Assembly: GCA_032117235.1 (NCBI GenBank) | Contig: JAULZW010000005.1 | Span: 31,264-95,263, forward strand | DNA length: 64,000 bases | Direction of reading: 5' to 3' | Origin: Minisyncoccota bacterium | GTDB lineage: Bacteria > Patescibacteriota > Minisyncoccia > SW-4-49-11 | Shown here: piece by piece, positions 662-44,708 of the stretch | Layout: the number at the start of each line of letters is the position of its first letter | Position numbering within the stretch: position 1 is the first letter of the stretch | The notes under the pieces: model-generated | Told to the model about the DNA's origin: nothing | Seen by the model: only the letters and a program-made list of their open reading frames with translations | Databases searched by the model: none | Position numbers and translations under genes: made by a program

Positions 662-1276
662 TTACAACCCCAAAATCTCTTTAACTTTCATAATAGTGAC
701 TTTTTCTTGGCGGGTGAGTTCATCTAGGGAGTTTTGTATGGATTTGAGATTGGTTTTCATCTCTGGGATGATAACATATTCTAGTGCATTGACTCGTCGT
801 CTAGTGGCTTCGATTTCCTCGGCTAGTAGTCTGGCGGTGAATTCTATCTCAGCTAATTTGACTAATAGAGGTAATATATTCTGCAAGGTTAAGAGGGCTT
901 GGTCTAAATCTTTGGGTGTGCCTAAAGTTCCATATTGGAAGGGGTCTCCTTGTAAATGGGGGATTATATGTGGGATAGTCACTCCCATAATGGATTTCTT
1001 TTGTAATTCTAGATAAGTCTTTGCTTGGGATAGATGTATTAGTTCATTGATGGCTTCGGTTGAGATTTTGGTCTGAGCAAATTGAAATAATTGTATGGCT
1101 TCTACAATTTTGGGAGTTAATTCTCCTCTTAGCTTGATTACTTCTTGGATAATGGCTAGAAATTCTTGTATCAGTCCATCTCTCTTGTCGGTGAGCAAAC
1201 TATGTCCGCGAGAAGCGGTTTTAATCTTCTTTTTAAGTTTGAGAGCTTCTTGTCTAGTCGGTTTGACGGCGGGCAT
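662..1276 (-). CDS. atpD: A/V-type ATP synthase subunit D
   Basis: 204 aa, coiled-coil central-stalk protein with an MPAVKPTRQEALKLKKKIK-type N-terminus. It is the last gene of the atpHIKECFABD-ordered operon. Confidence 0.8.
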   Translation of the reverse strand: MPAVKPTRQEALKLKKKIKTASRGHSLLTDKRDGLIQEFLAIIQEVIKLRGELTPKIVEAIQLFQFAQTKISTEAINELIHLSQAKTYLELQKKSIMGVTIPHIIPHLQGDPFQYGTLGTPKDLDQALLTLQNILPLLVKLAEIEFTARLLAEEIEATRRRVNALEYVIIPEMKTNLKSIQNSLDELTRQEKVTIMKVKEILGL

Positions 1277-1278
1277 AC

Positions 1279-2664
1279 TTATTTGGAGTATTTATCTATG
1301 AATTCGGGCTTGATTTTCTTGAGTTCTTTTCTTGGTAATATGGATAATAAGTCCCAAGATAAATCTAGTGTGTCTAGAATGGTTCGGTTTTCTTTTCGTC
1401 CTTGTCTAATATATCTATTCTCAAAGGCTTCAGCGAATTTAATATAGGCTTTATCTGTCTCAGATAGGGCAGATTCTCCTAAAATTAGGGCTAATTCTTT
1501 GATTTCTATACCTTTGGCATAGGAGGAGGCCATTTGCTCTTTGACAGCGGATAAATCTTCTCGGCTGTATTTTTTATTAACTCCAATTCGTGATAATGAT
1601 CCAATTGGTTGTATTGGAGGGTATATTCCTTGATTATGTAGCTCTCTGTTGACCATAATTTGCCCCTCTGTGATGTATCCGGTCAAATCCGGTATTGGAT
1701 GCTGCTTATCATCATCTGGCATTGTAAGGATAGGAATTTGGGTTAATGACCCTGTGGAGCCTTTGACTATTCCTGCTCTTTCATACAATGTTGCAAGGTC
1801 GGTGTATAGATATCCTGGATATCCTCGTCGTCCTGGAATTTCTTTTCTAGAAGCGGATACTTCTCTTAAGGCATCTGCATAATTTGTCATATCGGTTAAT
1901 ATAACTAATACATGCATATTTTTCTCAAAGGCAAGATATTCTCCGAGAGTAAGTGCTAATCTTGGTAGGGTAATTCTCTCTACAATTGGGTCGCTAGCGG
2001 TGTTGATAAATAAAGCAGCTCTCTCCATTGCTCCAGTTTTCTCAAAGGAGTCGATGAAGAATTGTGCTTCCTCAAAAGTCACTCCCATAGCTGCAAAAAT
2101 CACTACAAAAGGTTCTTCAGCTTGTATTAATTCTTTTCCATTTTGTAGGGCTACAACTTGGGCTTGTTCAGCAATTTGGGTGGCTATTTCAGAATGTGGT
2201 AGTCCTGAGCCTGAGAAAATTGGTAACTTTTGTCCTCTTACTAGGGCATTTAGGCCATCTATGGTGGAAATTCCAGTTTGAATAAATTCGCTAGGGAATT
2301 GTCTCATTCCTGGGTTAATAGGGGATCCATTAATATCTAAATATTTCTCAGCTATAATTTCGGGGCCTCCATCTTTGACTTTCCCAGCTCCGGTGAATAC
2401 TCGTCCTAACATACTGTCAGATACTCCGAATTTCAAAGTTTCTCCTAAGAAAGCTATTTCTGCTGTGTCTATATCTAATCCTTCGGTATTAGTGAATAAT
2501 TGTACGATAGCTTGGTCTTCCCCAGCTTCTAGAACTCGTCCTTGTCGGATATTACCTTTGGAATCTCTAATCTCCACGATTTCCTCGAAGGCGACTTGAG
2601 GTACTTTTTCCACTACTACTAATGGTCCAGCAATTTCTTTGATTGTATTATACCATTTCTTCAT
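1279..2664 (-). CDS. atpB: A/V-type ATP synthase subunit B (non-catalytic)
   Basis: 461 aa of F1/V1 alpha-beta fold immediately downstream of subunit A. Carries a degenerate P-loop region typical of B subunits. Confidence 0.9.
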
Positions 2665-2673
2665 ATTATTATC

Positions 2674-4506
2674 CTAAATTCCACTTATTACTTTATTGAT
2701 ACCAAAATCCTCAGGTTTATCATTGTCTTTTAGGTTCTGAATAGTGCTTGAAATTTTCTCAATTAGAGGTACTATGGTCTCAATTTCAGCTTCGGGAGTG
2801 TTCTTGAGTCTAGATATTTCTTCTCGGATTGGTAACTCTAATATGTCATTGGTCTCAACTTGGGTATCTTTTTTAGCTAATTCAGTAGCTTCTTTATGGA
2901 AGGTGAGCATAGCTTTTAGCATCAAATACATTTTGCGAGTGGAGGCAAAAGCATCAATTTCATCGAAGGCATTTTGTTGTAAATAATCTTCTCTTAGGCC
3001 ACGGGCAGTGTCTAGTAGAATTTTCTCCGAAGTGGAGAGTGCATCCATACCAACTAATTTAATAATATCATCAAGTTCATTTTCTTTTTGTAGAATTTGC
3101 ATAGCTAAGTCTCGTAATTCTTTCCAATCGGCATCGGTTTTATTTATAAAATATTCTTCCACATTTTCCTTATAAAGACTGTAACTATTAAGCCAATGAA
3201 TAGATGGGAAATGTTTTTTAGCAGCAAGAGAGGCATCTAATCCCCAAAAAGCTTTGGTCACTTTGAGGGTAGCTTGGCTAACAGGTTCGGATAAATCTCC
3301 TCCTGGAGGCGATACAGCTGCAATAATGGTGGCTGACCCAGTTCTTCCCTCAGAACCAAGAGTTGTCACAATACCCGCTCTTTCATAAAAAGCTGAAATT
3401 CGAGATCCAAGATAAGCAGGATATCCTTCTTCTCCGGGCATTTCTTCTAATCTTCCTGACATTTCACGCATAGCTTCAGCCCAACGAGAGGTAGAATCGG
3501 CCATCATAGCCACATTATATCCCATATCTCGATAATATTCAGCAAGAGTAATACCTGTATATACAGAGGCTTCACGAGCGGCAATTGGCATATTGGATGT
3601 ATTGGCTACAAGAATTGTTCTTTCCATCAATGGTCGGCCTGAATTTGGATCTTTAAGATGTGGGAATTCTACTAATACATCGGTAATCTCATTTCCTCTC
3701 TCTCCGCAGCCAACATAAACCACAACATCGGCATCTGACCATTTTGCCAATTGATGCTGAATAACTGTCTTTCCAGCTCCGAATGGTCCTGGTACGGCAG
3801 CCGCTCCTCCTTTGGGAATTGGGAAAAAGGTATCTATAATTCTCTGCTGGGTAATAAGTGGAGTAGTGGGGATTTGTTTAGCTTTGTATGGTCTTGGAGT
3901 TCGAACTGGCCATTTATGCATCAATTGTACAGATGTGTCTCCAATCTTAGCTACTGTCTCGGTAACAGTGAATTCTCCTGCTTTAATCTCAGTGATTGTT
4001 CCCTCAACTCCAAAAGGCACTAGAATTTTATGAGTGATTAGCTCAGTTTCTTGTACTGTTCCTAGTATATCTCCAGCTTGAACTTGAGCGCCTTTTTGTA
4101 CTGATGGCTTAAACTCCCATTTTATCTCTCTATCCAAACTAGGAGCTGTTAAACCTTTTGTTATATATTCAGAATTGAGACCTTGGGCAGCTGTTTTCTC
4201 GGCAATTACATTGAGTGGTCTTAAAATTCCATCAAATAATCCAGCAGTCAAAAGTCCTGGGCCTAACTCTATACTAAGGGGCTCTCCAGTAGAAACAACT
4301 GGTTCTCCAACTACCAATCCAGAAGTGTCTTCATAGACTTGAATAGAGGCGGTATTGCCTTTGAGTTCAATAATTTCTCCCATTAATTCTAAGTTTCCAA
4401 CTCTGACCAAATCATACATTTTAGCTCCAATCATAGAGTCAGCTATAACTAAGGGTCCTGAGATTTTGATAATAGTTCCGGTATTCATAGTCATTATTTT
4501 AATCAA
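2674..4506 (-). CDS. atpA: A/V-type ATP synthase catalytic subunit A
   Basis: 610 aa. Walker A GPFGAGKT. Conserved V1-A blocks [15 protein letters not shown] and [11 protein letters not shown]. Confidence 0.92.
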
Positions 4507-4826
4507 GAGGCGAATAATTTGTCTAGGCTCATCCCTACTGCTTTTTCGGTGAGATGTTTTAATTCCTCAACGGAATTACTATCTGAGCTAATAGGTAGCT
4601 GTGAGATAGGTATATTGAGTGAGTTCAAGACTTTTTTTTGTTTAGAGGTAAGAATTATATTGGAGGCTATAAATATAATAGCATACATTTCGGCATCTTT
4701 TTGAATAGTATCTATAATTTGGTCTATTTCTAATTCATTACTATTCAAAGTCTCAAATCCAAATAATTGAAATAAGAGATTAATGTCTGATTCAGCTATT
4801 ATAACTGGTTTTTTATAGTCTAACAT
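4503..4826 (-). CDS. atpF: A/V-type ATP synthase subunit F
   Basis: 107 aa with a subunit-F-like N-terminus ([19 protein letters not shown]). Position is between C and A, as in A-type operons. Confidence 0.6.
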
Positions 4827-5761
4827 ATATTGGAATAATCTATAAATCTTAATTTAGCTTGCTTGGAATCAAATTCCTTAGAATGCTGTAAAATCAGTAA
4901 TTTAAAGTTTGAAATAGCATATTGTAATCTCTCGGTATATTGAATAATTCTATCTCCGGACATACCGCTAAATTGAGCTCTATTTATGGTCTTGATTTCA
5001 TTTTTAATAAGGGTGTTTTCAATATTGATGGTATTTATATCTACAGGAGCTAAATTTAAATATTGACCAATATCTCCTAACACGTCTCCAAAACTAAATC
5101 CTTTTACCGCATTGATAGCCAAACTTCCTTGAATTGGTAATAAGTGTCGTAAAATATGTTCTTTAGATTGCCCTTTTTGAGTTCTAGCTAAAACATTGAG
5201 TAGGGTATAGCTATCTATTTTAGCTAAGACAAAGTCTCTCATAATATCACTACTATAGTCCAAATTTTCAAAAAGTAAGGTCAAGAATATCTCCTCTAAA
5301 TAGGAAATAATGCTAAAGCTATCTTTAGAGTGTATTAGCTTCTCTTCTTTAATTAGTAATTTTGTTTTAAACTTGGAGCCATAATATAGTTGAGTTGTCG
5401 TACCATCTAAAATCTGTTCAAATGATTTTTCTCCCAAATTTTCACCATAAATAGTTTTATTCAAAGCTAGGGTTTTTAATTTTTCAAAGTCTTTAGTAAG
5501 GGTTAAGTAAATAAAAGGAGATGTATTTTCTGGTAAAAGAGACAAGATTTCATCCAATTGTTTACTATAGTGATGATTTAGATTTGTAATAGCATTTCCT
5601 TGGTTAATATCTATCAATCCAAATGAATCTCGAATCATATTCAAAATAACATCAATATTACCTGTATTGAGTAAATTTTTGGTCTCAGTAGAAACGGGTA
5701 AATGCCCTAATCGAGAGACATATCTACTAGTAACACCAATTAGAGGAACTTGTAAACTCAT
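4820..5761 (-). CDS. atpC: A/V-type ATP synthase subunit C (V0 d-like)
   Basis: 313 aa soluble protein between E and F. Assigned mainly by operon position and size. Confidence 0.55.
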   Translation of the reverse strand: MSLQVPLIGVTSRYVSRLGHLPVSTETKNLLNTGNIDVILNMIRDSFGLIDINQGNAITNLNHHYSKQLDEILSLLPENTSPFIYLTLTKDFEKLKTLALNKTIYGENLGEKSFEQILDGTTTQLYYGSKFKTKLLIKEEKLIHSKDSFSIISYLEEIFLTLLFENLDYSSDIMRDFVLAKIDSYTLLNVLARTQKGQSKEHILRHLLPIQGSLAINAVKGFSFGDVLGDIGQYLNLAPVDINTINIENTLIKNEIKTINRAQFSGMSGDRIIQYTERLQYAISNFKLLILQHSKEFDSKQAKLRFIDYSNIC

Positions 5762-6294
5762 ATTTCCTTTATTACGGAGGCTAATGTTGTTTTTTTGACT
5801 TTATCCAAAATATCCTCAACAGTAATTTCTAGGCTGATATTCTCTAACTTGCCATTAATGGCCCCTAAATTAGAGTTTTGATTGCTTTTACTGTTTTTAT
5901 AGCCAAGACTTGAAATTATATCTTTTAATTCTTCGGTATATTTTCCAGTAATAGTTAAAGTTGTGTTCTGTGGGATACCCTGAAGAGTGTCTTGAATTAA
6001 AGTTTTGACAAAGTTAGAAGCTAGAATTTCTGGTAAAGATTCAATATAAATAACTTCTAATTGAGATTGTATAGCATAGCCAGAATTGAATTTACTAGTT
6101 TTACTGTTTTGGAATTTCTGAAAATTAACTTGAGTAGCAACGGCTTCTTCAATTTTTTCAGTATGTAGCTTTTTGGTCTCAGACAAAGCAGTATTCCATG
6201 TATCTTTGTTTTCTTTCAAGTCTGCTTTATATTGAGCTTCTAATTTCTCAATATCTTTATTCATCTGAGATTGTATTAAATCTGCTAAAGTCAT
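5758..6294 (-). CDS. atpE: A/V-type ATP synthase subunit E (peripheral stalk)
   Basis: 178 aa with a charged coiled-coil N-terminus and a globular C-terminus. Position after subunit K. Confidence 0.6.
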   Translation of the reverse strand: MTLADLIQSQMNKDIEKLEAQYKADLKENKDTWNTALSETKKLHTEKIEEAVATQVNFQKFQNSKTSKFNSGYAIQSQLEVIYIESLPEILASNFVKTLIQDTLQGIPQNTTLTITGKYTEELKDIISSLGYKNSKSNQNSNLGAINGKLENISLEITVEDILDKVKKTTLASVIKEI

Positions 6295-6296
6295 AT

Positions 6297-6776
6297 TTAT
6301 CCTACTGATACTCCGTTAATAATTAGAATAGAAACTAGCAATCCGAAAACAGCAAAAGTCTCTACTAAAGCGGCTAAGATAATTACTTGTCCAATCTTAG
6401 ATTTATCTCTAGCGATCAATTGAACTCCACTAGCAATTACATCACCCTGATATTTTCCAGAAGCTAAACAAGTAAGTCCTACAGGAATTCCAGCAAAAGC
6501 TAATATCATACCATTTTGCCAACTAACATTTGCAAACTCACCAGATAATACTCCAGTATTTTGCAGAATTAAAACAGCTGCTAAAAGACCATAAATAGCT
6601 TGTGATCCAGGCAGAGCTGATAATAAAAGTATATTCCCAAATTGAGAATCATCCTCAGCAACTAACCCAGCTCCAGTTTTACCAGCGGTAGAAACTCCGA
6701 TTGATGAGCCAGCTCCAGCTAAGCCGGCAGCTAGAGCAGCACCTAATACTGCTAAACTTATACCTAATACTTCCAT
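6297..6776 (-). CDS. atpK: A/V-type ATP synthase proteolipid subunit K (duplicated 4-TM c subunit)
   Basis: 159 aa and Gly/Ala-rich with four predicted TM helices (LAAGLAGAGSSIGVSTAGKTGAG). This matches a double-hairpin V-type c subunit. Confidence 0.85.
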   Translation of the reverse strand: MEVLGISLAVLGAALAAGLAGAGSSIGVSTAGKTGAGLVAEDDSQFGNILLLSALPGSQAIYGLLAAVLILQNTGVLSGEFANVSWQNGMILAFAGIPVGLTCLASGKYQGDVIASGVQLIARDKSKIGQVIILAALVETFAVFGLLVSILIINGVSVG

Positions 6777-6879
6777 ATATTCAACTTTAACTTTTAATTA
6801 GGGACAGAGCTTCTTACCACTGCTATCCTTTTCGCTATACTCCTAAATTTTTAAGAATATAATGAAAAAGATAACAGTA

Positions 6880-8916
6880 TTATTCAATAACACTATAATC
6901 TTGAGATCGAGAAACCTCCTGTAAGGGTCTTCCTCCAGATTGGAAGAATTTACTAAAGAATTCTACAAAGTGCAATCTACCTACATTGATATAAGTACCT
7001 AAGACATTCAGAGCAATATTAAATATATTTCCTGCTACAAAAATAACAATCATAATAATATATCCAATAACAATCCAAGCACCACCTTTTTCTACTAATC
7101 CGCTACCAGCTAGGTTTGCTAAGGTTCCTACTACTCCAGCAATAATTCCAGTTGCAAGACCTAGAGCAACTAACCTAGTATAAGATAGTATATCTGACAA
7201 ATATCCTACTACTCCAAAAAATACATCATAGGCTCCTTTACCAAACTTAGCAAATATAGACTTCATATCTCTACCCAAAAGATATATCATTGTAAATACA
7301 TAGCCAATATATATATATATCAGAGGATCAATGAGTAATTGAAGTCCATTTCCTAATAATCCAAAATTAATAAGCAATAATAATATTCCAAAGATCAAAG
7401 CTAAAGCCCAAAGAATAGAATCTAGACTAGCATCCCAGAATGACTTTTGATTGAATGCTTGTACAATGTTGAGAGATAACCCAAATAAAAGATGAATAAC
7501 TCCAAGTACAATAGTGAATCCCATCAAAGTAATTACACTGTCCATAGGATTGATAACTTGTAATTGCTGCAAGAAAGGAATTAGTCCAATACTAATTAAG
7601 AATTTCATATGAGGTGACGCTGTAGCAGGGTCAATTGCATCTGGAGTAATTCCAAACCAACTACCAAATAAAGCTCCTACAATCAAAGTAGAGATAGAAG
7701 CAATAAACACTACTGCAAAAATATCTCTTACACCTGATTTTAATCTAGAATTTAATAATCCAAGCCCAGTCAAAATAATTAGAATCAGCGCATATCCAGC
7801 CTCAGATAAAGCTAATCCGAACATAAAGGTGAAGAATATAGCAATAGATAAAGTCGGATCAATTTTGCCAGCCTGCGGATAACCCATAATTTTTGTTACA
7901 GTTTCAAAATGTCTTACAATAGGCAAGTTTTTGAATATAACTGGAGTGTCTTCAGATACAGATGGTAATTCTACAATTTTAATATCATTTGAAATGTCTA
8001 AAATATCTTTTTTATATAAATTAAACTTTTCTTCATCTACCCATAACTTTATAGAAGAATTTGTTTCAGATTCTGGATTAAAAGAATGTAAATAAGAAAT
8101 CAAATTTAGTTGAGAATTTAATACATCTGCTAAAATAGCCAAATCCTTGAGCTGAATAGGGGATTTTTTGAGCTCAAGATTTATTTTATTGATGATTTTG
8201 GCATTAACACTAAATTCTTGTTTACTTTTATGATAAATATCATAAAAAGATCCTGTAACTTCAGCTGGAAATTGAATGAAGGTAGCTTGATTTTGAATTA
8301 TATCTAGTCCAATTTTAACCTGATTTTTTGAAACGGCTAAAATATAAACATAATCAGTCCCAATTTTTTTAACAGACTCCAATACAATAGGAGATAAACT
8401 TTGCTCCAACTGCTCTACTAAATAATGGGCTCTAGATTCATCAACTAAAAATGGTAAAAATTTAATATAAGAATAGGGTTTAAAAATATTAAGTTCGATG
8501 TCTTTTAGAGGTTCTGATTTAGCAATAATATCTTGTAAAACTTCTTGTCTAGTTGTTAAATCATCTTTCAGTCCAGCTTTTTCTACAATCTCTTGAGCTT
8601 TTTTGATAATTTCTCCTTGCTCTGTATTATAATGTTCAAAAATGTCTTCAGTGATTAAAAATCTATCATCTAACACAGCTGAGAACATGGATTTTTTAAC
8701 AGTATGATACCCTTTGTATATATCCAAAGATTTATTTACTATATCTAGATTTTCTAATAGATCCTCTTGTTTATGTAAATAATTTTTAGCTAAAGGAGTT
8801 CTTTCTAGTTTTTCTATAATTTCTCCAACTTGACGCTTTTGAATATAAGCTAATAAGTTTAATTGAGTATTGTTTGGAACAGTGATTTGAATTAGTTTAG
8901 ACGCTTTAACTCCCAT
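6880..8916 (-). CDS. atpI: A/V-type ATP synthase subunit I (a-subunit, membrane)
   Basis: 678 aa with a soluble N-terminal half and a polytopic C-terminal half. Position between the atpH-like gene and K. Confidence 0.8.
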   Translation of the reverse strand: MGVKASKLIQITVPNNTQLNLLAYIQKRQVGEIIEKLERTPLAKNYLHKQEDLLENLDIVNKSLDIYKGYHTVKKSMFSAVLDDRFLITEDIFEHYNTEQGEIIKKAQEIVEKAGLKDDLTTRQEVLQDIIAKSEPLKDIELNIFKPYSYIKFLPFLVDESRAHYLVEQLEQSLSPIVLESVKKIGTDYVYILAVSKNQVKIGLDIIQNQATFIQFPAEVTGSFYDIYHKSKQEFSVNAKIINKINLELKKSPIQLKDLAILADVLNSQLNLISYLHSFNPESETNSSIKLWVDEEKFNLYKKDILDISNDIKIVELPSVSEDTPVIFKNLPIVRHFETVTKIMGYPQAGKIDPTLSIAIFFTFMFGLALSEAGYALILIILTGLGLLNSRLKSGVRDIFAVVFIASISTLIVGALFGSWFGITPDAIDPATASPHMKFLISIGLIPFLQQLQVINPMDSVITLMGFTIVLGVIHLLFGLSLNIVQAFNQKSFWDASLDSILWALALIFGILLLLINFGLLGNGLQLLIDPLIYIYIGYVFTMIYLLGRDMKSIFAKFGKGAYDVFFGVVGYLSDILSYTRLVALGLATGIIAGVVGTLANLAGSGLVEKGGAWIVIGYIIMIVIFVAGNIFNIALNVLGTYINVGRLHFVEFFSKFFQSGGRPLQEVSRSQDYSVIE

Positions 8917-9216: not shown

Positions 9217-9473
9217 ACATATTTATAATTACAATTCATTATAGTCTAGAGAATTTTATTTGTCAATGATTTGTATGGGATTGGAGTGGGTTTAGAGGGT
9301 TTAGCTCCCAGCTTACAGGATTATTAATAATATATTCTTGAATTTTTAGTAAATCAGTATCATTACAAAAATACACTTCATATTATCTACACACACTGTA
9401 ACAAAATACCAATAACCTCCAAGATATAATTCTTTTGACAATCTTTTTATTTGCCTTTTCATAAAAAATATCC

Positions 9474-10928
9474 CTACACAAAGAATTTTTTACGAATTAT
9501 TTCATCTTGTTCTCTTTGCTTATCTTCAATTAAATTGATGGCCTTTATTTTCAAGTCTTTGAGGTCCTGTACGGCTAATATTTGAGCTTGTGATTTGAGA
9601 TAGTTGGGATTATTTTTACTTGGGTTCTCTAATATTTCGGCTAATAAAACATTTAGAATCATACCTATCATAGGTCCTGCTGGGATTTTTAATTCCTTAA
9701 TTAAAGTATTTCCATCTATTTTGAGCATAGATAAATCTATTGGGTCTAATAAAACTTTTTCTGTCATATATTCAAAATGCCGTAGGCGATAGGGGCGAGC
9801 CTTAGGAGTTCCAGAACCAATACGGTCACATTCTCTTAGCTTAATCAAGTCCTTGATATTCTCAACTCCTACATTACGGATAAGCTTACGAATAGAGGAT
9901 TCAGTCACTTCATTGGTATCATAATAAAACATATGATAACGCACTAATTTTGAAATTCGGGCTGCAAATTTTTTAGGATAATGAAGTCTATTGAGAATTT
10001 CATAAGCCATACTAGCGCCTACAACTTCATGATTATGAAAAGTACAGGTTTTCCCTACGCCTTCTTTAGTACGAGGTTTTGCAATATCATGTAATAGTCC
10101 AGCCATTCTCAAATCAAAGCTCCAAGACATATCACAAGCATGTTGCATAGTCCTCAAAAGATGTTCCCAAACATCATAAATATGATGTCCATTTTGTTCT
10201 ACTCCTATACCTTCTAATAATTCGGGCATTATGAAAGGTAATAAATGAGTATCTCTTAGTAATATATAGCCATTCATTGCTCGCGGGGTTAGCATCATTT
10301 TGGTGAGCTCATCTCGAATTCGCTCCTGCGCAATATGCTCGAGATTAGGAGCTAAATCTTGAATAGCTTGCAAGGTTTTAGGCTCAATGGTGAAATCTAA
10401 TTGCACTGCAAATCTCACAGCTCGCATTAGTCTCAAGGCATCTTCCCCAAATCTATCTTTTGGCTCACCCACAGTACGAATAATACCTTTTTCTAAGTCA
10501 GATAAACCTTCAAAGAAATCTTGTATTTCTAATTTAGCATTCATCGCCAGAGTATTAACAGTAAAATCTCGGCGAGCAAGGTCAAGAGAGAGTTCAGAGA
10601 CGAATTCAATTTGTTCAGGATGCCTCTTATCGGTATATTGAGATTCTTTGCGATAAGTGGTAACTTCAATAATCTCTGTCGTATCATCCGGACGGCGATA
10701 CTTGACCCCTACAGTTCCAAAACTATTCTCATAAACAGAGTCAGGAAATAATTCTTGAATTTGATTCGGAAGAGCATTAGTAGTAATATCCCAATCTACG
10801 GGATTTGAACCTCTCACAAGATCACGAACACTACCTCCAACAATAAAAGCTTCATATCCAGCTTGTTCGAGTGTATTCAATATTAAAATAATATGATTAG
10901 GTATAGAATAAGACATAATTTTTTTCAT
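9474..10928 (-). CDS. cca: CCA-adding tRNA nucleotidyltransferase with HD domain
   Basis: Class II polymerase-beta motif GGSVRDLVRGSNPVDWDITT and an HD motif LLHDIAKP. The start is set at the internal MKKIMSYS because the longer ORF would overlap the tRNA gene. Confidence 0.85.
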   Translation of the reverse strand: MKKIMSYSIPNHIILILNTLEQAGYEAFIVGGSVRDLVRGSNPVDWDITTNALPNQIQELFPDSVYENSFGTVGVKYRRPDDTTEIIEVTTYRKESQYTDKRHPEQIEFVSELSLDLARRDFTVNTLAMNAKLEIQDFFEGLSDLEKGIIRTVGEPKDRFGEDALRLMRAVRFAVQLDFTIEPKTLQAIQDLAPNLEHIAQERIRDELTKMMLTPRAMNGYILLRDTHLLPFIMPELLEGIGVEQNGHHIYDVWEHLLRTMQHACDMSWSFDLRMAGLLHDIAKPRTKEGVGKTCTFHNHEVVGASMAYEILNRLHYPKKFAARISKLVRYHMFYYDTNEVTESSIRKLIRNVGVENIKDLIKLRECDRIGSGTPKARPYRLRHFEYMTEKVLLDPIDLSMLKIDGNTLIKELKIPAGPMIGMILNVLLAEILENPSKNNPNYLKSQAQILAVQDLKDLKIKAINLIEDKQREQDEIIRKKFFV

Positions 10929-10936
10929 ATAAATAA

Positions 10937-11014
10937 TGGAGCCAATGGTGGGGATCGAACCCACGACCTATGCGTTACGAATGCATTGCTCTACCAGAAC
11001 TAAGCTACATTGGC
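10937..11014 (-). tRNA. tRNA-Thr (anticodon CGU), CCA encoded
   Basis: The reverse complement folds into a cloverleaf with a 7-bp acceptor stem GCCAATG/CATTGGC, T-loop TTCGATC and anticodon loop TTCGTAA with U33 and A37. One A-C mismatch closes the anticodon stem. The 3' end is TCCA. Confidence 0.88.
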
Positions 11015-11067
11015 ATAAGCATAGTATAGTCTAAAATGGCTGTAAGAGCAATACCAGAAAGAAAAAA

Positions 11068-11087
11068 CCCCACTTAGCTAAGTGGGG
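11068..11087 (-). terminator. rho-independent terminator-like hairpin (minus-strand transcript)
   Basis: ccccactt-agct-aagtgggg is a perfect 8-bp stem. The minus strand follows it with a UUUUUUCUUUC run. Confidence 0.5.
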
Positions 11088-11394
11088 TGGAGTGTTGGGA
11101 TCTGATTAAGTTGCATAAAGCTCGAGGGAGTATTATTGTTAAAACATCTCTGTTGGCTCGACCCTTGCACCGAATAGATATTTGTCTAATCGTATTTGGA
11201 ACTATTTTTCTGTGTCGTTCAGGTATTTTGTGTCGGCTTAATAGTATTGCATTAGTATAAACTCTCGTTTTGTTTAATCCTTTCAATCTAGAAAATGATT
11301 TTTCTGTATTTATATTTAATCCCTCTAAGATAATGATGATATTTCTCCATTCTTCTACAGACAGAACCCAAGTCTCCATCAGAAAATTCCTCAA
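11074..11394 (-). CDS. questionable 106-aa basic ORF (possibly non-coding)
   Basis: The ORF ends inside the terminator hairpin and has no recognisable domain. It lies in a long non-coding-looking spacer. Confidence 0.15.
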   Translation of the reverse strand: MRNFLMETWVLSVEEWRNIIIILEGLNINTEKSFSRLKGLNKTRVYTNAILLSRHKIPERHRKIVPNTIRQISIRCKGRANRDVLTIILPRALCNLIRSQHSTPLS

Positions 11395-11441
11395 GTGAAA
11401 GTAGTATATAAAATATCAAATTCTATTATTATTGTCAAATT

Positions 11442-11680
11442 GGGGACGGAGCTAAATTCCCCTCTTGAGGGGTGGACAGCTTTGCTGGACGGGGTGGAAA
11501 AGAAAATATTTATACATAACATAAAAATACTCCACCCCGTATCCCCGCTGTAAACATATCAGGGATACACCCCTCAAGAGGGGAGTTGAAAGCCAGAAAA
11601 GTAAAAGCCCTACGAAAACTATGTCGGCGGGTCGCCGACTCTACGAATAATGGAGGGGTAAACCCTCCGCTACGAAAAAG
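11442..11680. ncRNA. candidate structured RNA of unknown class (GC-rich, nested long-range helices)
   Basis: The span is about 50% GC against a 30% GC genome. Three sets of pairings are visible. (1) Outer pairing 11457-11475 (ttcccctcttgaggggtg) with 11568-11585 (cacccctcaagaggggag). (2) Inner pairing 11487-11499 (ggacggggtggaa) with 11541-11555 (ctccaccccgtatcc). (3) Hairpins gtcggcg-ggt-cgccgac and ggaggg-gtaaa-ccctcc, separated by three CUACGAA repeats. Confidence 0.35.
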
Positions 11681-11683
11681 AAA

Positions 11684-11717
11684 AAAGCCCCGCTGAGTGC
11701 AGGGCTTGGTGAGAAAC
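11684..11717 (-). terminator. rho-independent terminator of the 11723..12166 gene
   Basis: Hairpin aagccc-cgctgagtgca-gggctt. The minus strand follows it with UUUUUUCUUUUUC. Confidence 0.5.
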
Positions 11718-11722
11718 GAGAG

Positions 11723-12166
11723 TCAGGAGAGAAACTCGTACTGAGTGACGATGCCCCAGTGAATCGTTGCCATTAAAGGTGGCAACATATAATTCTTATC
11801 CTGATAGGCTTGAGCCCATAACAAAATAATGGGCTTCAATTCTTGCTCCTGTTCAGTCAGGAACCAGAACTTTGCCTCAGTCTCCTCGACTGTTTCTAGC
11901 AAGGTAATTGCTATAAATATCTGAACCACACTCCCATACTTTTTGGATTCCTCCAAGATCTCAGGGAGTAGAGCTTCTACTCCAGCTACCAATTTCTTTA
12001 GAGGGAATTGTCGGGAGCTGAGATCCGTCGGGATGGGAGGGGGAGCAACCTCAGCCTCAGGAATTTCGCCTGGTTTCATCTCTGCCAAACTCTGAATATT
12101 GTCCAGAGTTTGGGGGAAGAGTGAACGAATGCGTTCAAGGATTCGGAAGGGGGTGAGGGAGGGCAT
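11723..12166 (-). CDS. hypothetical protein encoded in a GC-rich island
   Basis: 147-aa ORF at about 48% GC with CGG/GGG/CCC-type codons that are rare elsewhere in the window. No recognisable motif. Confidence 0.45.
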   Translation of the reverse strand: MPSLTPFRILERIRSLFPQTLDNIQSLAEMKPGEIPEAEVAPPPIPTDLSSRQFPLKKLVAGVEALLPEILEESKKYGSVVQIFIAITLLETVEETEAKFWFLTEQEQELKPIILLWAQAYQDKNYMLPPLMATIHWGIVTQYEFLS

Positions 12167-12240
12167 AAGCCAAACCTTGTGAAATGAACAAAAATAATCA
12201 TATCACAAAACCACCAAAATGTCAATAGGTGTAGGTAGTT

Positions 12241-13659
12241 TTATTTTGTCTTGATAATCACACTTTTCCCGTCTTTATCCTGGATAATGTAGCCTGATTT
12301 AGATAATTCTTGTCTTAATTTGTCAGCTTGGTCAAAGTCTTTATTGGCTCTAGCTTGATTGCGATTATTGAAAATAAGCATTATATCAGCGGGGATTGAG
12401 GTTTTGGTGAGGGGTAAATTGAGAGCCAGAACTCGCTCTAATCTTTGGAATAATTTGATTATATGGCGTCTTGGTATGGGGTCTCCAGCATCTATTGAGC
12501 TATTGATTTCTTTGATAAAATCAAACATAAAGGCAATGGCCTTGGGGGAGTCAAGATCAGAGAAAAGAGATTTTTTGAAATTATTATAGGTATCTCGGAT
12601 CAGCTTTTGTAGCTTTAGGTTTTTGCGATGTGGCTTGATAGTATTCACTCTATTGATAAAATCTATTATCCGCTGGCGGGTTTGTTTGGCTTGAGTTAGG
12701 GAGTCCCAAGAAAAATCTATATCAGAGCGATAATGTGCCATTAAAACTAATAATCTCAAGTCTAGTGGAGAATAGTCTTTATCAACAATATCATCTAGGG
12801 TGATAAAAGTTCCCGCTGATTTGGACATTTTGGCGGTATTGACGGTGAGAAAATAACTGTGCAGCCAATAATGTGCCATTGGCTTACCAGTATCTGCTTT
12901 GAACTGAGCTATTTCATTGGTGTGATGAATTGGAATATGATCTTTACCTCCTGTATGTATATCAAAGGGTGCATGGAGTAGTGAGTCTGCCATTACTACA
13001 CATTCAGAATGCCAACCAGGGAAGCCAATTCCCCAAGGGCTATCCCATTCCATTTGTCTTGTCTCATCTTTAGGGGAGAATTTCCATAAAGCAAAATCTG
13101 AGGGCGATTTTTTATCTCCCATATTTACTCGAGCTCCGGCTTCCTGAGCTTTGAGATTGAGATGGGCAAAATCAGCATATTCTGGGAATTTGGTAGTATC
13201 AAAATATACTCCATCACTGATAATATAGGTATATCCTTTGCGCTCTAATCTCTTGATAAGATTAATTTGCTCTTTTATATATTCAGTTGCTTTCGGGTAA
13301 TGGTCTGAAGAAAGAATATTCAGTTTTTCTAAATCTTCTTGCCAAAGTTTGGTGTATTTCTCGGCGATTTCTAATGCTGTGAGATTTTCTCTTTTGGCTC
13401 CTTTTTCTAATTTATCCTCTCCGGTATCCTCATCACTAACCAGATGGCCAACATCTGTAATATTAGTAACTGAATAAATAGTATAGCCATGTAATTGCAG
13501 AGTTCTTTTGAGTAAATCATCAAATAAACTTTTTCGTAAATTTCCAATATGCTGTCTATCATATACGGTTGGTCCACAACTATATAGGGACACTCTTTTT
13601 AGGTGTATGGATTTGAAAGGGACTATTGCCTTGGCTGGGGTATTATATAGTTTTATCAT
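12241..13659 (-). CDS. cysS: cysteinyl-tRNA synthetase
   Basis: Class I aaRS with a HIGN (HIGH) motif at the N-terminus and a KMSKS motif (TAKMSKSAGT). Length 472 aa. Confidence 0.9.
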   Translation of the reverse strand: MIKLYNTPAKAIVPFKSIHLKRVSLYSCGPTVYDRQHIGNLRKSLFDDLLKRTLQLHGYTIYSVTNITDVGHLVSDEDTGEDKLEKGAKRENLTALEIAEKYTKLWQEDLEKLNILSSDHYPKATEYIKEQINLIKRLERKGYTYIISDGVYFDTTKFPEYADFAHLNLKAQEAGARVNMGDKKSPSDFALWKFSPKDETRQMEWDSPWGIGFPGWHSECVVMADSLLHAPFDIHTGGKDHIPIHHTNEIAQFKADTGKPMAHYWLHSYFLTVNTAKMSKSAGTFITLDDIVDKDYSPLDLRLLVLMAHYRSDIDFSWDSLTQAKQTRQRIIDFINRVNTIKPHRKNLKLQKLIRDTYNNFKKSLFSDLDSPKAIAFMFDFIKEINSSIDAGDPIPRRHIIKLFQRLERVLALNLPLTKTSIPADIMLIFNNRNQARANKDFDQADKLRQELSKSGYIIQDKDGKSVIIKTK

Positions 13660-13665
13660 ATAATA

Positions 13666-15309
13666 TTATTGAAGAGGATTAGAGGTTGATTTATTGGGTG
13701 GTCGATAAGTTGAATAAAAAGCGTCTCTTTTTATCATATTTTCTCCCTCATAAATTTCACGATAGGCTACGGTTTTCATAGATCCGTCTGGGCTTGATTC
13801 TAACACGACGGGCTCAATAGTTTTGGCGGTTTTGCCAGTTGAGGTTCCATAAATTTCATAATACAGAATAGTCCCTACAATATAATGTTGAATCAAAATA
13901 TGATGATTTGTATCATTTTGGAATTTAAAGTCAGGTTTTGGTAAGTAGATTGTAGCATCAAGCCCAGGTTTTCCATAATAATTTACAACATAAGAATGGT
14001 TTCTCCTCTCAATAATTGGTAATCCAGCATTTAGAGCGGCTCTAAATAGAGTAGTTGAAACTTGGCAAATACCTCCTCCATATTCGGGTATGGTTTTATT
14101 GCCTTTAATTACTAACTCAGGTAAATATCCATTACGGGCATCTACTTTACCCAAGGTATTTACAAAAGAGAACTCCTCTCCAGGTTTCAAAAGAGTGCTA
14201 GAAATTTTATTAGCAGCTACATTTATATTTTTAACCCTACTTTTGCTTGATCCTCTAAAGTTAGACTCTCCTTTTCCCAATAGTATTTTAAGACCTAGTG
14301 CATCGAATTGGGATTCATCAATCAGGGGAGAGGTGACCGCTACGAATAATTCTGTTTTTGCTTTTCCATCTAAAATATCATTTTTAATTCTTTTAGAACT
14401 TTCTTCCATCATTAACTTAGCCCCTTCTTTTCCAGGCTCTAAAATTTGAATTTGTTGAGTGTCAGGATTGAATCTTAATTTTGCATTCACAGGTTGGCTA
14501 GTCAGAGTTTTTTGCACTGATTCTAAATATTCTTTGACTGTATCTTGAGAGATGTCAATTTTTTTGGTTGTCTGATCAATAGTAATCCAAGTAACAATTT
14601 CTTCAGGAGGGATAGTGATATTAGTTTTATTAAAAAATATTTCATGTTCTACTATCAAGGCTTCTAAATCTGATTTTTGAGCTTCCCAAGAAGCAGTTGT
14701 AATGCTAGGGATCTCTTTTTTAAGTGGGACTTCTAATTTTATTTCCTCATCTTTCATCTTAGCAGTAATAGCTGGAGTTATTTTTTCGACATCTAATCTT
14801 TCTCCAACCTGTTCTGGAATAATAATAACTTCACCTTCTTTATAATCTAATTTAGCATTAGCAAGAGTTTTTAGAGCTGGATTTATTTTAGCACCGAGTG
14901 CAGATTCCAAGACTTCAGGATCACTTGTATATAGCCAATTTATATCGGTATTTTGAAATAGGTGGCTTAAAATAGCAAGAATATTGTTTTTTCTCTTAAC
15001 TCTATAAGCTTGTACTAAAGTTTCATCAGTATTGAGTTTTATGCCCAACTCTTCTAATGTAGTAGTATATTCTTGATTTTCATAAGTGAGTATAATATTT
15101 TTAACACTTAGATTTTTATTCTTTTCATCCAATATGTCGAAGGCTTCCTTTAAGCTTTTAGAACTAATATCAAGCCCTTGCACTGCAACATTAGGATAAA
15201 CTGACTCACGATAAGCAAAAGAAAACCATCCAGCTATAATGGACAATATTAAGAATATAGAAGTTATAATGATTAATGGTAGCTTAACTTTTTGCCAAAA
15301 TAATTTCAT
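13666..15309 (-). CDS. VanW-domain membrane-anchored protein (YoaR-like)
   Basis: N-terminal TM helix. C-terminal VanW-like block GGGICQVSTTLFRAALNAGLPIIERRNHS. Confidence 0.7.
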   Translation of the reverse strand: MKLFWQKVKLPLIIITSIFLILSIIAGWFSFAYRESVYPNVAVQGLDISSKSLKEAFDILDEKNKNLSVKNIILTYENQEYTTTLEELGIKLNTDETLVQAYRVKRKNNILAILSHLFQNTDINWLYTSDPEVLESALGAKINPALKTLANAKLDYKEGEVIIIPEQVGERLDVEKITPAITAKMKDEEIKLEVPLKKEIPSITTASWEAQKSDLEALIVEHEIFFNKTNITIPPEEIVTWITIDQTTKKIDISQDTVKEYLESVQKTLTSQPVNAKLRFNPDTQQIQILEPGKEGAKLMMEESSKRIKNDILDGKAKTELFVAVTSPLIDESQFDALGLKILLGKGESNFRGSSKSRVKNINVAANKISSTLLKPGEEFSFVNTLGKVDARNGYLPELVIKGNKTIPEYGGGICQVSTTLFRAALNAGLPIIERRNHSYVVNYYGKPGLDATIYLPKPDFKFQNDTNHHILIQHYIVGTILYYEIYGTSTGKTAKTIEPVVLESSPDGSMKTVAYREIYEGENMIKRDAFYSTYRPPNKSTSNPLQ

Positions 15310-44287: not shown

Positions 44288-44708
44288 AATGCTTGTCTTA
44301 GTACCATCTACCTTCTTTCTTTTTCCAGATTTGTCACGCTGGTATCCATACAATGTCGCTTATGAACATATGTTTACTGTTATTTTTTTCGCGTGGGGTT
44401 TGTATTTGTATCTCGCAGCAAATAATCCCTCTGCAAACATCGGCCTCATCAACTTCACTGCCTTGCAAGGCCTGCTACACGGTGGGGTGATGTTTGTTCA
44501 CGTGTTTATGGGGATGCATCACAGCTATTGGCATCTTGTGGGGGATGTGCCTTTTCATCTTTCTATGTTTTTTGTGTTAGGCTATCTTCGTAACTACTCA
44601 CCAATAGCTACTGATGAGGTTATAACCTCTAGAGCGAGGCTCTGGACAATAGTGATATTTTCCAGTATTGCAGTACTTGTGGTGTACACTGTGTTTATTC
44701 GCTTGTAG
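44288..44708 (+). CDS. hypothetical polytopic membrane protein in a GC-rich patch
   Basis: About 43% GC with GCG/CGC codons. 3-4 TM helices. Start uncertain: the ORF track uses TTG at 44259, and the first in-frame ATG is at 44288. Confidence 0.35.

Follow-up and report, generated by a model that had tools for sequence, protein, structure and literature searches.

Positions 11440-12240 of the 64-kb window (64,000 nucleotides of contig JAULZW010000005.1 from a Minisyncoccota bacterium, the whole stretch that was analysed) form a GC-rich island in an AT-rich genome of the Parcubacteria-like type, within the candidate phyla radiation (CPR). The island is probably a composite of two unrelated GC-rich things that lie side by side: gene A, which encodes an orphan protein of 147 amino acids and stands next to cysS, and a non-coding spacer holding a cluster of repetitive extragenic palindromic (REP) sequences. 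To judge from the related loci available for comparison, the island appears to be neither a recent foreign insert nor an assembly error, the two explanations advanced in the original prediction, which had been made from the letters of the sequence. The observation of a GC-rich island is confirmed, while its earlier interpretation is only partly supported.

The whole window has a GC content of 31.9%, and intervals of 801 nucleotides (nt) taken across it have a mean of 0.319 with a standard deviation of 0.037. At 0.466, positions 11440-12240 lie about 4 standard deviations over this mean and are the most GC-rich stretch of the 64 kb (the peak begins at 11434), as compared with 0.352 and 0.384 in the flanks of 800 nt each. 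The figure of 48-50% originally given was thus slightly too high for the interval as a whole, although the 200-nt profile does reach 0.485-0.505 at its maximum. The island divides into gene A, with a GC content of 0.473, and the non-coding spacer at 11440-11722, with 0.491; the non-coding palindromes of the latter amount to about one third of the island. Its features are as follows.

12197-12225, minus strand: gene A promoter, TTGACA, 17-nt spacer and TG-extended TATGAT (promoter scan, 11 of 12 consensus matches)
11723-12166, minus strand: gene A, 147-amino-acid orphan protein
11965-11989, minus strand: intragenic GTAG-headed perfect palindrome with an 8-bp stem, inside gene A
11685-11707, minus strand: intrinsic terminator of gene A, 9-bp stem followed by a T-run, conserved in all loci
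11440-11680, minus strand: GC-rich palindrome cluster downstream of the gene A terminator
11652-11673, minus strand: REP1, GTAG-C-GGAGGG-TTTAC-CCCTCC, a GTAG-headed GC-rich palindrome
11623-11644, minus strand: REP2, GTAG-A-GTCGGCG-ACC-CGCCGAC, a GTAG-headed GC-rich palindrome (0 chance matches expected)
11610-11613, minus strand: third GTAG head with a degenerate, non-palindromic remnant (CTACG copies)
11455-11587, strand unassigned: 133-nt element with 20-nt inverted repeats at its ends, resembling REP doublets forming hairpins (REPINs) or miniature inverted-repeat transposable elements (MITEs)

Gene A is a resident of the cysS locus

In 13 of 13 related loci with context, gene A directly follows a VanW-domain gene and cysS, and no empty site for it was found among them. 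The order further upstream, with FemAB, PfkB and TsaE genes before VanW-cysS, is also that of the window. Downstream, most loci continue with gene B, tRNA-Thr and cca; elsewhere the neighbours are MacB/FtsX (locus L001) and VKOR (locus L004). Since L001 and L004 keep gene A beside cysS with no tRNA-Thr or cca downstream, it is cysS, and not the tRNA, to which the gene is linked. The arrangement in the window agrees with this. The island had been placed next to tRNA-Thr, yet gene A abuts cysS, from which it is separated by a 74-nt spacer, while the tRNA lies about 700 nt off with gene B between.

The signals of the transcription unit are maintained as well. The promoter motif ATTGACATTTT...TTTTGTGATAT[GA]AT and the 5' untranslated region (UTR) are kept in 13 of 13 related loci, and the terminator that had been predicted for the gene was found at 11707-11685 and in every related locus, so that both promoter and terminator are conserved. 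Across all alleles, gene A has a GC content of 0.445-0.489 and a third-position GC content (GC3) of 0.43-0.52, in surrounding loci of 0.33-0.40. One of these loci, L007, belongs to a metagenome-assembled genome named 'Parcubacteria group bacterium', whose cysS differs from that of the window at 6% of residues. Because its homologues hold the same locus in related AT-rich genomes, gene A is best regarded as an ancestral gene with a biased composition, and it appears to have occupied this place directly after cysS ever since the clade's common ancestor.

These findings bear directly on the two earlier explanations. A recent horizontal insertion would make the island an islet, or the end of a larger one, at the tRNA-Thr gene, with a foreign GC content that has not yet decayed; the strongly atypical codon usage of gene A, the tRNA gene nearby, and the 45-50% GC contigs of the remote homologues P0031 and P0032, which match gene A in composition, all agree with such an origin. 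However, gene A follows cysS in every related locus, even in the two without a tRNA downstream, and the GC excess is equally strong between alleles with 50-57% of their third positions changed. Nor does the locus look like an integration site: the island is on the 5' side of tRNA-Thr, the 25-nt 3' end of the tRNA matches itself alone with up to 3 mismatches allowed and so is not repeated further along, no direct repeat of relevance occurs in 10800-13800, and there is no integrase or mobility gene between cysS and the tRNA, where genes A and B are the sole open reading frames (ORFs), neither with a significant match in Pfam, NCBIfam, PHROGs or PADLOC. A phage origin was considered and rejected, no relative of gene A having been found among viral contigs. 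Recent insertion is thus highly improbable. Even less probable is an assembly chimera or contamination, in which a GC-richer fragment of another organism was joined to an AT-rich contig. The sharp change in composition and the uncultivated type of genome would suit it, but the cysS/gene A and gene A/terminator/gene B junctions recur at 93-100% identity in independent assemblies (JGI, ENA, Logan and NCBI) and in the independent metagenome contigs L016/L017 and L010, L016 matching the window at 93-100% over both gene A junctions, and the gene A promoter adjoins the cysS stop, both being conserved.

Gene A encodes an orphan protein with atypical codon usage

The 147-amino-acid ORF recognised originally is confirmed at 11723-12166 on the minus strand, and its codon usage is indeed the most deviant in the window, with a GC3 of 0.52 as compared with 0.216 ± 0.068 for 53 ORFs. 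Given the same amino acids, 27.2 codons ending in G or C would be expected from window usage, and 70 are observed (z 9.2). The enriched codons are CCC, CTC, TTC, GAG and CAG. Of the three that had been singled out as rare elsewhere, CCC is over-represented, with 6 codons (40.8 vs 3.4 per 1000), whereas GGG occurs once in frame, with no enrichment, and CGG is unused in frame; the excess of these triplets was partly out of frame and partly within the non-coding spacer. An overlapping or antisense ORF was also considered as a cause of the codon bias, and none is conserved.

Comparison of the alleles indicates that gene A is protein-coding. Pairwise differences at codon positions 1, 2 and 3 are 0.24, 0.14 and 0.40 (9 alleles), indels preserve the reading frame, and the annotated frame is the only one that stays open across 12 of 12 alleles. 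A search of 5.8 billion proteins returned 27 homologues with 52-95% identity, each about 150 residues long and lacking any Pfam domain; profile searching extended this set by only a few remote relatives from 1.84 billion cluster representatives, and a second profile search brought the total to 35 homologue clusters. Against Pfam, NCBIfam, PHROGs, PADLOC and the PDB sequences, gene A gave no credible match. The source name carried by one homologue (P0001), 'NifB/MoaA-like Fe-S oxidoreductase', was rejected as wrong, with zero cysteines and no radical-SAM match.

Protein A is small and acidic and has no cysteine. Its AlphaFold model has a mean predicted local distance difference test score of 70.8, with the N-terminal 40 residues disordered and residues 45-147 forming a confident beta-alpha-beta-beta-alpha-beta domain, which is predicted to be a generic, ferredoxin-like fold; the N-terminal part comprises a basic helix and then a PPPIP linker before the domain. 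The best guess at a function, a cytoplasmic binding or immunity-type protein under diversifying selection, is itself an unlikely one. The remote homologues P0031, P0032 and P0036 are about 30% identical over the domain and lie in contigs of 45-50% GC, with the GC content of the gene equal to that of its surroundings. Their neighbours are a PF00144 beta-lactamase-family gene, a GH25 lysozyme and unannotated ORFs; a role in the cell wall, at which these might faintly hint, was set aside as too weak to use.

Two side observations concern the coding sequences. The window allele has the 3' end of the 'HWGIVPQ*' class, but with the stop mutated from TGA to TAC (11723-11740), so that five residues (YEFLS) are appended before the next stop in frame, a stop that L008 and L018 also have. 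Another outlier in GC3, the second in the window, is an ORF at 44289-44708 on the plus strand, with a GC content of 0.42 and a GC3 of 0.45, which encodes a hydrophobic protein of 139 residues with a Pfam DUF6632 match (E 1.7e-09). No paralogy between it and gene A was found, and it may be the better candidate for a true horizontal acquisition.

Gene A alleles are mosaics exchanged between lineages

Neither the third-position nor the amino-acid divergence of gene A tracks that of the adjacent cysS. Third positions differ between the window and L009 by 0.12 in gene A and 0.33 in cysS, and between the window and L006 by 0.39 and 0.13, respectively; the same reversal is seen between L008 and L018 (0.21 and 0.51) and between L002 and L008 (0.57 and 0.21). 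In sliding comparisons with L006, L007 and L010, cysS is 90-100% identical throughout, whereas gene A switches, every 100-150 nt or so, between identities of about 45% and 97-100%. With L009, the stretch of high identity spans about -40 to +380 around the ATG and so corresponds roughly to the transcription unit. The pairwise homoplasy index of gene A is 0.343, as compared with 0.564 ± 0.009 in permuted data, and none of 2000 permutations was as low; in cysS a signal is present but much weaker (0.393 vs 0.421 ± 0.007).

Because the relationships of gene A disagree with those of cysS next to it, the alleles, which are strongly mosaic in blocks, are exchanged laterally between lineages by recombination. 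Horizontal transfer, as had been proposed, would thus survive in the form of allelic exchange, not of a recent foreign insertion. Weighing against this reading, strain mixing in metagenome assembly could make variable blocks that lie far apart seem more closely linked than they are. The evidence for the blocks themselves, and for the disagreement with cysS, comes from junctions shorter than a read and from alleles recovered in several samples, such as P0015, which was found in 21 contigs. Silent donor cassettes were sought by tblastn in a 9.5-kb segment of the window and in the fetched loci, where the gene itself alone was found. A link between recombination breakpoints and hairpins was likewise examined and discarded, the rough overlap between the two being inseparable from the boundaries of conserved and variable protein blocks.

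Excess folding and the maintenance of high GC

Besides its composition, gene A stands out by the predicted folding of its sequence. Relative to dinucleotide shuffles, the coding sequence of the window allele has a folding z of -5.4 (-5.7 with the UTRs), and the values for 10 other alleles are -7.2, -6.5, -5.9, -4.7, -4.6, -4.1, -3.8, -2.5, -2.3 and -1.7. Fourteen other gene segments of the window range from -1.6 to +2.8, and the cysS controls from -1.4 to +0.7. GC content alone does not yield the excess, since the GC-rich ORF at 44289-44708 has a z of -1.6. Perfect hairpins with a stem of 6 bp or more number 3-8 per allele, as compared with about 1.0 in shuffles. RNAalifold predicts 13 local helices and the terminator, which is helix 14 and is 98.8% paired. 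Over the conserved helices, 92.0% of cells are paired (89.6 ± 0.5 in shuffles) and 21 are doubly changed (10.3 ± 2.6), the covariation score is 0.144 as against 0.05-0.07 for slid partners, and helix 11 has four compensatory pairs. These counts are suggestive of a selected structure.

Several observations weigh on the other side. The covariation term of RNAalifold is slightly unfavourable (+1.53), most of the conserved pairs never vary, and the shuffle control for the helix counts may be exceeded by related sequences that have no structure. The alleles of L006 (z -1.7) and L004 (z -2.3) and the remote P0032 (z -0.7) fold only weakly better than shuffles. A test on polarised singletons, meant to estimate the equilibrium GC3, was underpowered, its 6 usable sites in gene A giving 5 changes from G/C to A/T and 1 in the reverse direction.

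As the alleles differ at up to 57% of third positions while GC3 stays at 0.43-0.52, the composition is maintained and not that of a fading foreign relic. Hypervariability alone does not make a gene GC-rich, because gene B, which is likewise replaced by very divergent alleles, has a GC3 of 0.24-0.32. The cause that we favour, if tentatively, is selection for nucleic-acid structure, ranked above GC-biased gene conversion and above re-seeding from a GC-richer pool. Gene A is a monocistronic resident whose extended -10 promoter is close to consensus and which ends in an intrinsic terminator; it evolves fast and by recombination, whole or partial alleles moving between lineages by homologous replacement. 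Under this proposal its transcript, or its single-stranded DNA, would be selected for many local hairpins; in a 32%-GC genome such selection would require G or C at synonymous sites and would hence maintain a high GC3, so that the GC island would arise in the manner of those of tRNA and other structured RNAs.

Each of the remaining explanations accounts for part of these data. Under GC-biased gene conversion, gene A would be a recombination hot spot in which heteroduplex repair favouring G and C raises GC3, with hairpins as a by-product. The recombination signal is indeed far stronger in gene A than in cysS, the GC excess lies mainly at third positions, and the preponderance of G/C-to-A/T singletons (5 vs 1, a tiny sample) is as expected if mutation is AT-biased and something restores GC. 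Yet gene conversion does not predict an excess of folding over composition-matched shuffles or compensatory changes in helix 11; gene B has been replaced by very divergent alleles and retains its low GC3 of 0.24-0.32, and cysS recombines too with a GC3 of only 0.315. We consider this explanation unlikely, although less so than re-seeding, by which alleles would be imported continually from organisms or elements of 45-50% GC and would have no time to decay. The discordance with cysS, the background of the remote homologues and the extremely small, patchy family would fit such a supply; however, every close homologue with context lies in the same AT-rich synteny, no GC-rich donor of a close allele was found among the 5.8 billion proteins or the viral contigs, and the remote homologues are only about 30% identical, which leaves re-seeding with a slim chance.

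Slightly better placed than re-seeding, but still quite improbable, is the idea that the transcript of about 520 nt is a structured RNA in which the ORF is incidental, or a dual-function RNA. It would explain a GC island in an AT-rich genome, as for tRNA, and it draws on the monocistronic unit with its strong promoter and terminator, the folding z of -5.4 to -7.2 and the partial covariation. Against it stand the lack of an Rfam family match, even at E up to 10, the confident folded domain that is predicted, and the pattern of changes (position 3 > 1 > 2, in-frame indels and a single open frame across alleles with 52-95% identity); because this coding signature is clear, a purely non-coding gene A is excluded.

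Selection for structure, to return to the favoured cause, may also involve the palindrome inside the gene. At 11965-11989 the sequence reads GTAG-CT-GGAGTAGA-AGC-TCTACTCC within the conserved LVAGVEALLP block, the most conserved of gene A, and it is present in 8 of 12 aligned alleles, that of L009 among them with two stem substitutions. This palindrome is REP-like in form and resembles REP1; as a REP it is unproven, a candidate and a lead, not a finding. That the coding sequence of gene A is also selected as a nucleic acid for many hairpins that include this palindrome is, as a whole, a rather unlikely proposition, which takes two forms: the transcript of about 520 nt might be a dual-function structured RNA, or the hairpins might act as REP-like elements or as substrates of recombination and so give rise to the mosaic blocks among the alleles, in which case this ultra-small CPR genome would have here a diversification cassette linked to REPs.

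GTAG-headed REPs and a 133-nt element in the spacer

The second constituent of the island, the spacer, lies between the terminator of gene A (11685-11707) and the promoter-like site of gene B (11410-11438), and all of the REP units fall within it. On the minus strand it reads ...terminator-TTTTTC-GTAG-C-GGAGGGTTTACCCCTCC-ATTATTC-GTAG-A-GTCGGCGACCCGCCGAC-ATAGTTTTC-GTAG-GGCTTTT.... REP1 combines a stem of 6 bp with a loop of 5 nt, and REP2 a stem of 7 bp with a loop of 3 nt; in each an unpaired GTAG (11673-11670 and 11644-11641, respectively) stands 1 nt ahead of the stem. The complement CTACG occurs at 11610, 11641 and 11670, and 13 times in the whole window. REPs of the GTAG type are 20-40 bp long, with an unpaired GTAG head and stems of 5-13 bp (PMC3733652; PMC2817692), and are mostly found downstream of coding regions, frequently in clusters, with intragenic copies known (PMC3733652). 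By their size, GC-rich stem, head and clustered, extragenic position, REP1 and REP2 thus appear to be canonical GTAG-headed REPs in form. The REP1 module also follows the gene A terminator in L004/L005, L010 and L016/L017, that is, in the same spacer of five related loci. Their fit to the class is incomplete: REPs are typically dispersed through a genome in tens to hundreds of copies, and the 64-kb window has a single cluster. REP2 does recur elsewhere in L010 and L007, at one further locus. Over the window as a whole, hairpins with a GT[AG]G head show no enrichment (7 vs 4.1 ± 2.3). Three of these seven, those with the most GC-rich stems, fall in 11623-11989 on the same strand.

The spacer also carries the 133-nt element at 11455-11587, which is predicted to fold as a three-way junction; its arms are 20-nt inverted repeats, each of them a palindrome CCCCTCTTGAGGGG with no GTAG head. 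One copy of the element is present in L010 and two in L004, and it is absent from L002, L007 and L011. The folding z of the entire spacer (11440-11722) is -8.2 and -7.3 on the two strands. With Rfam 15, tRNA-Thr alone passes, whether at the gathering score or at E up to 10; nothing else in 10900-12400 is better than E 0.3, and all other matches fall far short of their gathering scores. The contents of the spacer vary from strain to strain: in L007, L011 and L018 the terminator is followed at once by the promoter, the spacer of L002 and L008 is AT-rich, and L009, L010, L016, L004 and L001 have differing sets of GC hairpins. REPs are absent from the spacer of L002, L007, L008, L011 and L018. Even L016, whose cysS segment differs from that of the window at 4% of residues only, has a different spacer. 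The promoter-like site of gene B beside this variable region is conserved in L009, L010 and L016.

Two further observations were made on these repeats. In L004, a block consisting of a terminator-like hairpin and the 133-nt element occurs twice at 6460-7600, about 790-900 nt apart, and the paired blocks bracket a GC-rich stretch and a homologue of gene B; the 209-residue ORF called there begins inside the repeat and is probably over-extended. Fourteen viral contigs from IMG/VR (L020-L033) contain an exact match to the REP2-type pattern GTAGAGTCGGC-N4-8-GCCGAC.

A RAYT-like gene reduced to a remnant

Two inverted copies that match the REP2 pattern exactly are present in L010 (6808-6830 and 7090-7112) and two more in L007, the copies of a pair being 282 nt apart from start to start. 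In both loci the pair sits in a 190-residue ORF just beyond cca (6712-7284 in L010 and around 6580-6890 in L007). The best family match of the L010 ORF is NF047646 of NCBIfam, REP-associated tyrosine transposase (RAYT), with an E value of 2.1e-16 and 60.1 bits, and the ORF contains the motifs 'MPNHFHGII' (H-F-H, the HUH motif) and 'FWQKSFYDHII' (YDH, with the catalytic Tyr). Since NF047646 is the best and only relevant match and strict family membership is not reached, the term 'RAYT-like' seems justified for these ORFs. The reservations are that the score is below the family cut-off of 80 bits, that the match to PF01797 (Y1_Tnp) is at E 0.002 with 18.7 bits as against a cut-off of 23, and that the REPs of L010 and L007 lie inside the RAYT-like ORF, in frame, and do not flank it, whereas a cognate RAYT gene normally has inverted REPs at its two ends (PMC2817692).

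In the window, what remains of this gene was found at 9263-9462. Its first 33 residues are retained at 82% identity, and 26 more (residues 156-181) at 77%, while the core between them, some 120 residues that include the HUH motif and the catalytic Tyr, is deleted; the deletion begins at the position of the GTAG of the first REP in L010. The genome of the window would thus have a dead RAYT-like gene and a few orphaned REPs. The strain-variable cluster of two canonical REPs and the 133-nt REPIN/MITE-like element may be regarded as part of a REP/RAYT system whose cognate gene lies beyond cca in relatives with the same REP, and we infer that the RAYT-like protein mobilised these REPs. As that gene is here reduced to a remnant, the REPs of the window are probably immobile relics. 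The 'degraded element' of the original prediction therefore has a counterpart in the REP palindromes and the decayed transposase gene nearby, but the 147-amino-acid gene is no part of it. A literature search of limited coverage returned no paper joining RAYT with CPR or Patescibacteria terms.

Gene B and other features of the locus

The genes and signals on either side of the island are as follows.

13666-15309, minus strand: VanW-domain gene
12241-13659, minus strand: cysS (Pfam tRNA-synt_1e)
11410-11438, minus strand: promoter-like site of gene B, TTGACA, 17-nt spacer and TG-TATTTT (promoter scan)
11074-11379, minus strand: gene B, basic small protein of 101 amino acids, with an ATG start and a GAGGAA Shine-Dalgarno sequence
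11067-11088, minus strand: terminator of gene B
10937-11014, minus strand: tRNA-Thr(CGU), intact
about 10928 down to 9474, minus strand: cca
9263-9462, minus strand: remnant of a RAYT-like gene, beyond cca

Gene B, which matches no known family, has an AT-typical GC3 of 0.29 and a promoter and terminator of its own. At its position the relatives have three allelic classes, with 17-25% identity between classes and W11, I14, L18, G34, K37, I67 and L91-I92 in common, all with a GC3 of 0.24-0.32. The 106-residue ORF listed for this gene, with a TTG start, is probably five codons too long. Similarly, the longest ORF for cca, from a GTG at 10964, overlaps tRNA-Thr; because the relatives begin at MSYSIP..., the true start would be at or after the ATG at 10928.

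Further away, V/A-type ATPase genes lie within 662-8916 of the window, with ATP-synt_D at 662-1276, and a 678-residue ORF at 6880-8916 is as long as the subunit-I-like gene that L002, L010 and L011 have at the corresponding position. The block at 662-4494 is moderately GC-elevated, with a GC content of 0.39 and a GC3 of 0.26-0.37.

Implications and comparison with known systems

For annotation, the locus illustrates that an island of deviant GC content and codon usage beside a tRNA in an AT-rich, uncultivated genome need not mean recent transfer or mis-assembly, and that a comparison of independent metagenome assemblies settles the question of insert or chimera quickly. Gene A is a gene whose synonymous sites are far from genomic equilibrium, which is shuffled by recombination and is unusually foldable. 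If selection for structure is the cause, it would be a tractable case of overlapping constraint on protein and nucleic acid in a streamlined genome; if biased gene conversion is, it would be a local natural experiment for that process. The spacer, for its part, would extend GTAG-type REPs with a RAYT-like transposase to a Parcubacteria-like (CPR) lineage, in which the system appears to be small and decaying.

As a segment of deviant composition that lies no more than about 1 kb from a tRNA gene, the locus resembles tRNA-linked genomic islands. Unlike these, it has no integrase or att-type repeat, lies on the 5' side of the tRNA, is kept in all relatives and is linked to cysS. Genes that are kept as mosaics by homologous recombination, such as the mosaic pbp genes of streptococci and the antigens of Neisseria, are a closer parallel, since gene A also alternates between near-identical and divergent blocks, has a tree discordant with its flanks and holds a fixed position; it departs from them in that protein A has neither a signal peptide nor a membrane segment and that the gene is an outlier in composition and folding. 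Coding regulatory RNAs of dual function are exemplified by RNAIII/hld and SgrS/SgrT. Gene A is similar to these in its monocistronic transcript of about 0.5 kb, predicted to be strongly structured and equipped with its own promoter and terminator, but its ORF fills about 85% of that transcript and is under clear protein-level selection.

The palindromes of the spacer can be compared with the GTAG REPs, bacterial interspersed mosaic elements and RAYT genes that together make up REPtrons (PMC2817692, PMC3733652). They share with these the unpaired GTAG head, a GC stem of 6-7 bp and a loop of 3-5 nt, the location just downstream of a gene and its terminator, the clustering and strain-variable presence, and the association of the same REP sequence with a homologue of IS200-like HUH/Tyr transposases. 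The differences are that there is one cluster in 64 kb, with all of its REPs in direct orientation, that the inverted REPs of the relatives lie inside the RAYT-like ORF, whose product scores below curated cut-offs, and that the transposase gene is here a deletion remnant; REPs inside ORFs have been reported (PMC3733652). The host differs as well, being a CPR/Parcubacteria-like genome, whereas the hosts in the 2013 REP survey were Proteobacteria, Cyanobacteria, Chloroflexi and the Planctomycetes-Verrucomicrobia-Chlamydiae group (PMC3733652). The 133-nt element is like REPINs and MITEs (PMC3116915) in having two inverted palindromic arms around a spacer, a predicted fold as a single long hairpin and several copies in related loci, yet it has no GTAG head, two of its four copies (those in L004) are without the second arm, and the copies are too few to show mobility. 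In its parts, then, the island belongs to known classes: a mosaic orphan gene, together with GTAG REPs in a new lineage.

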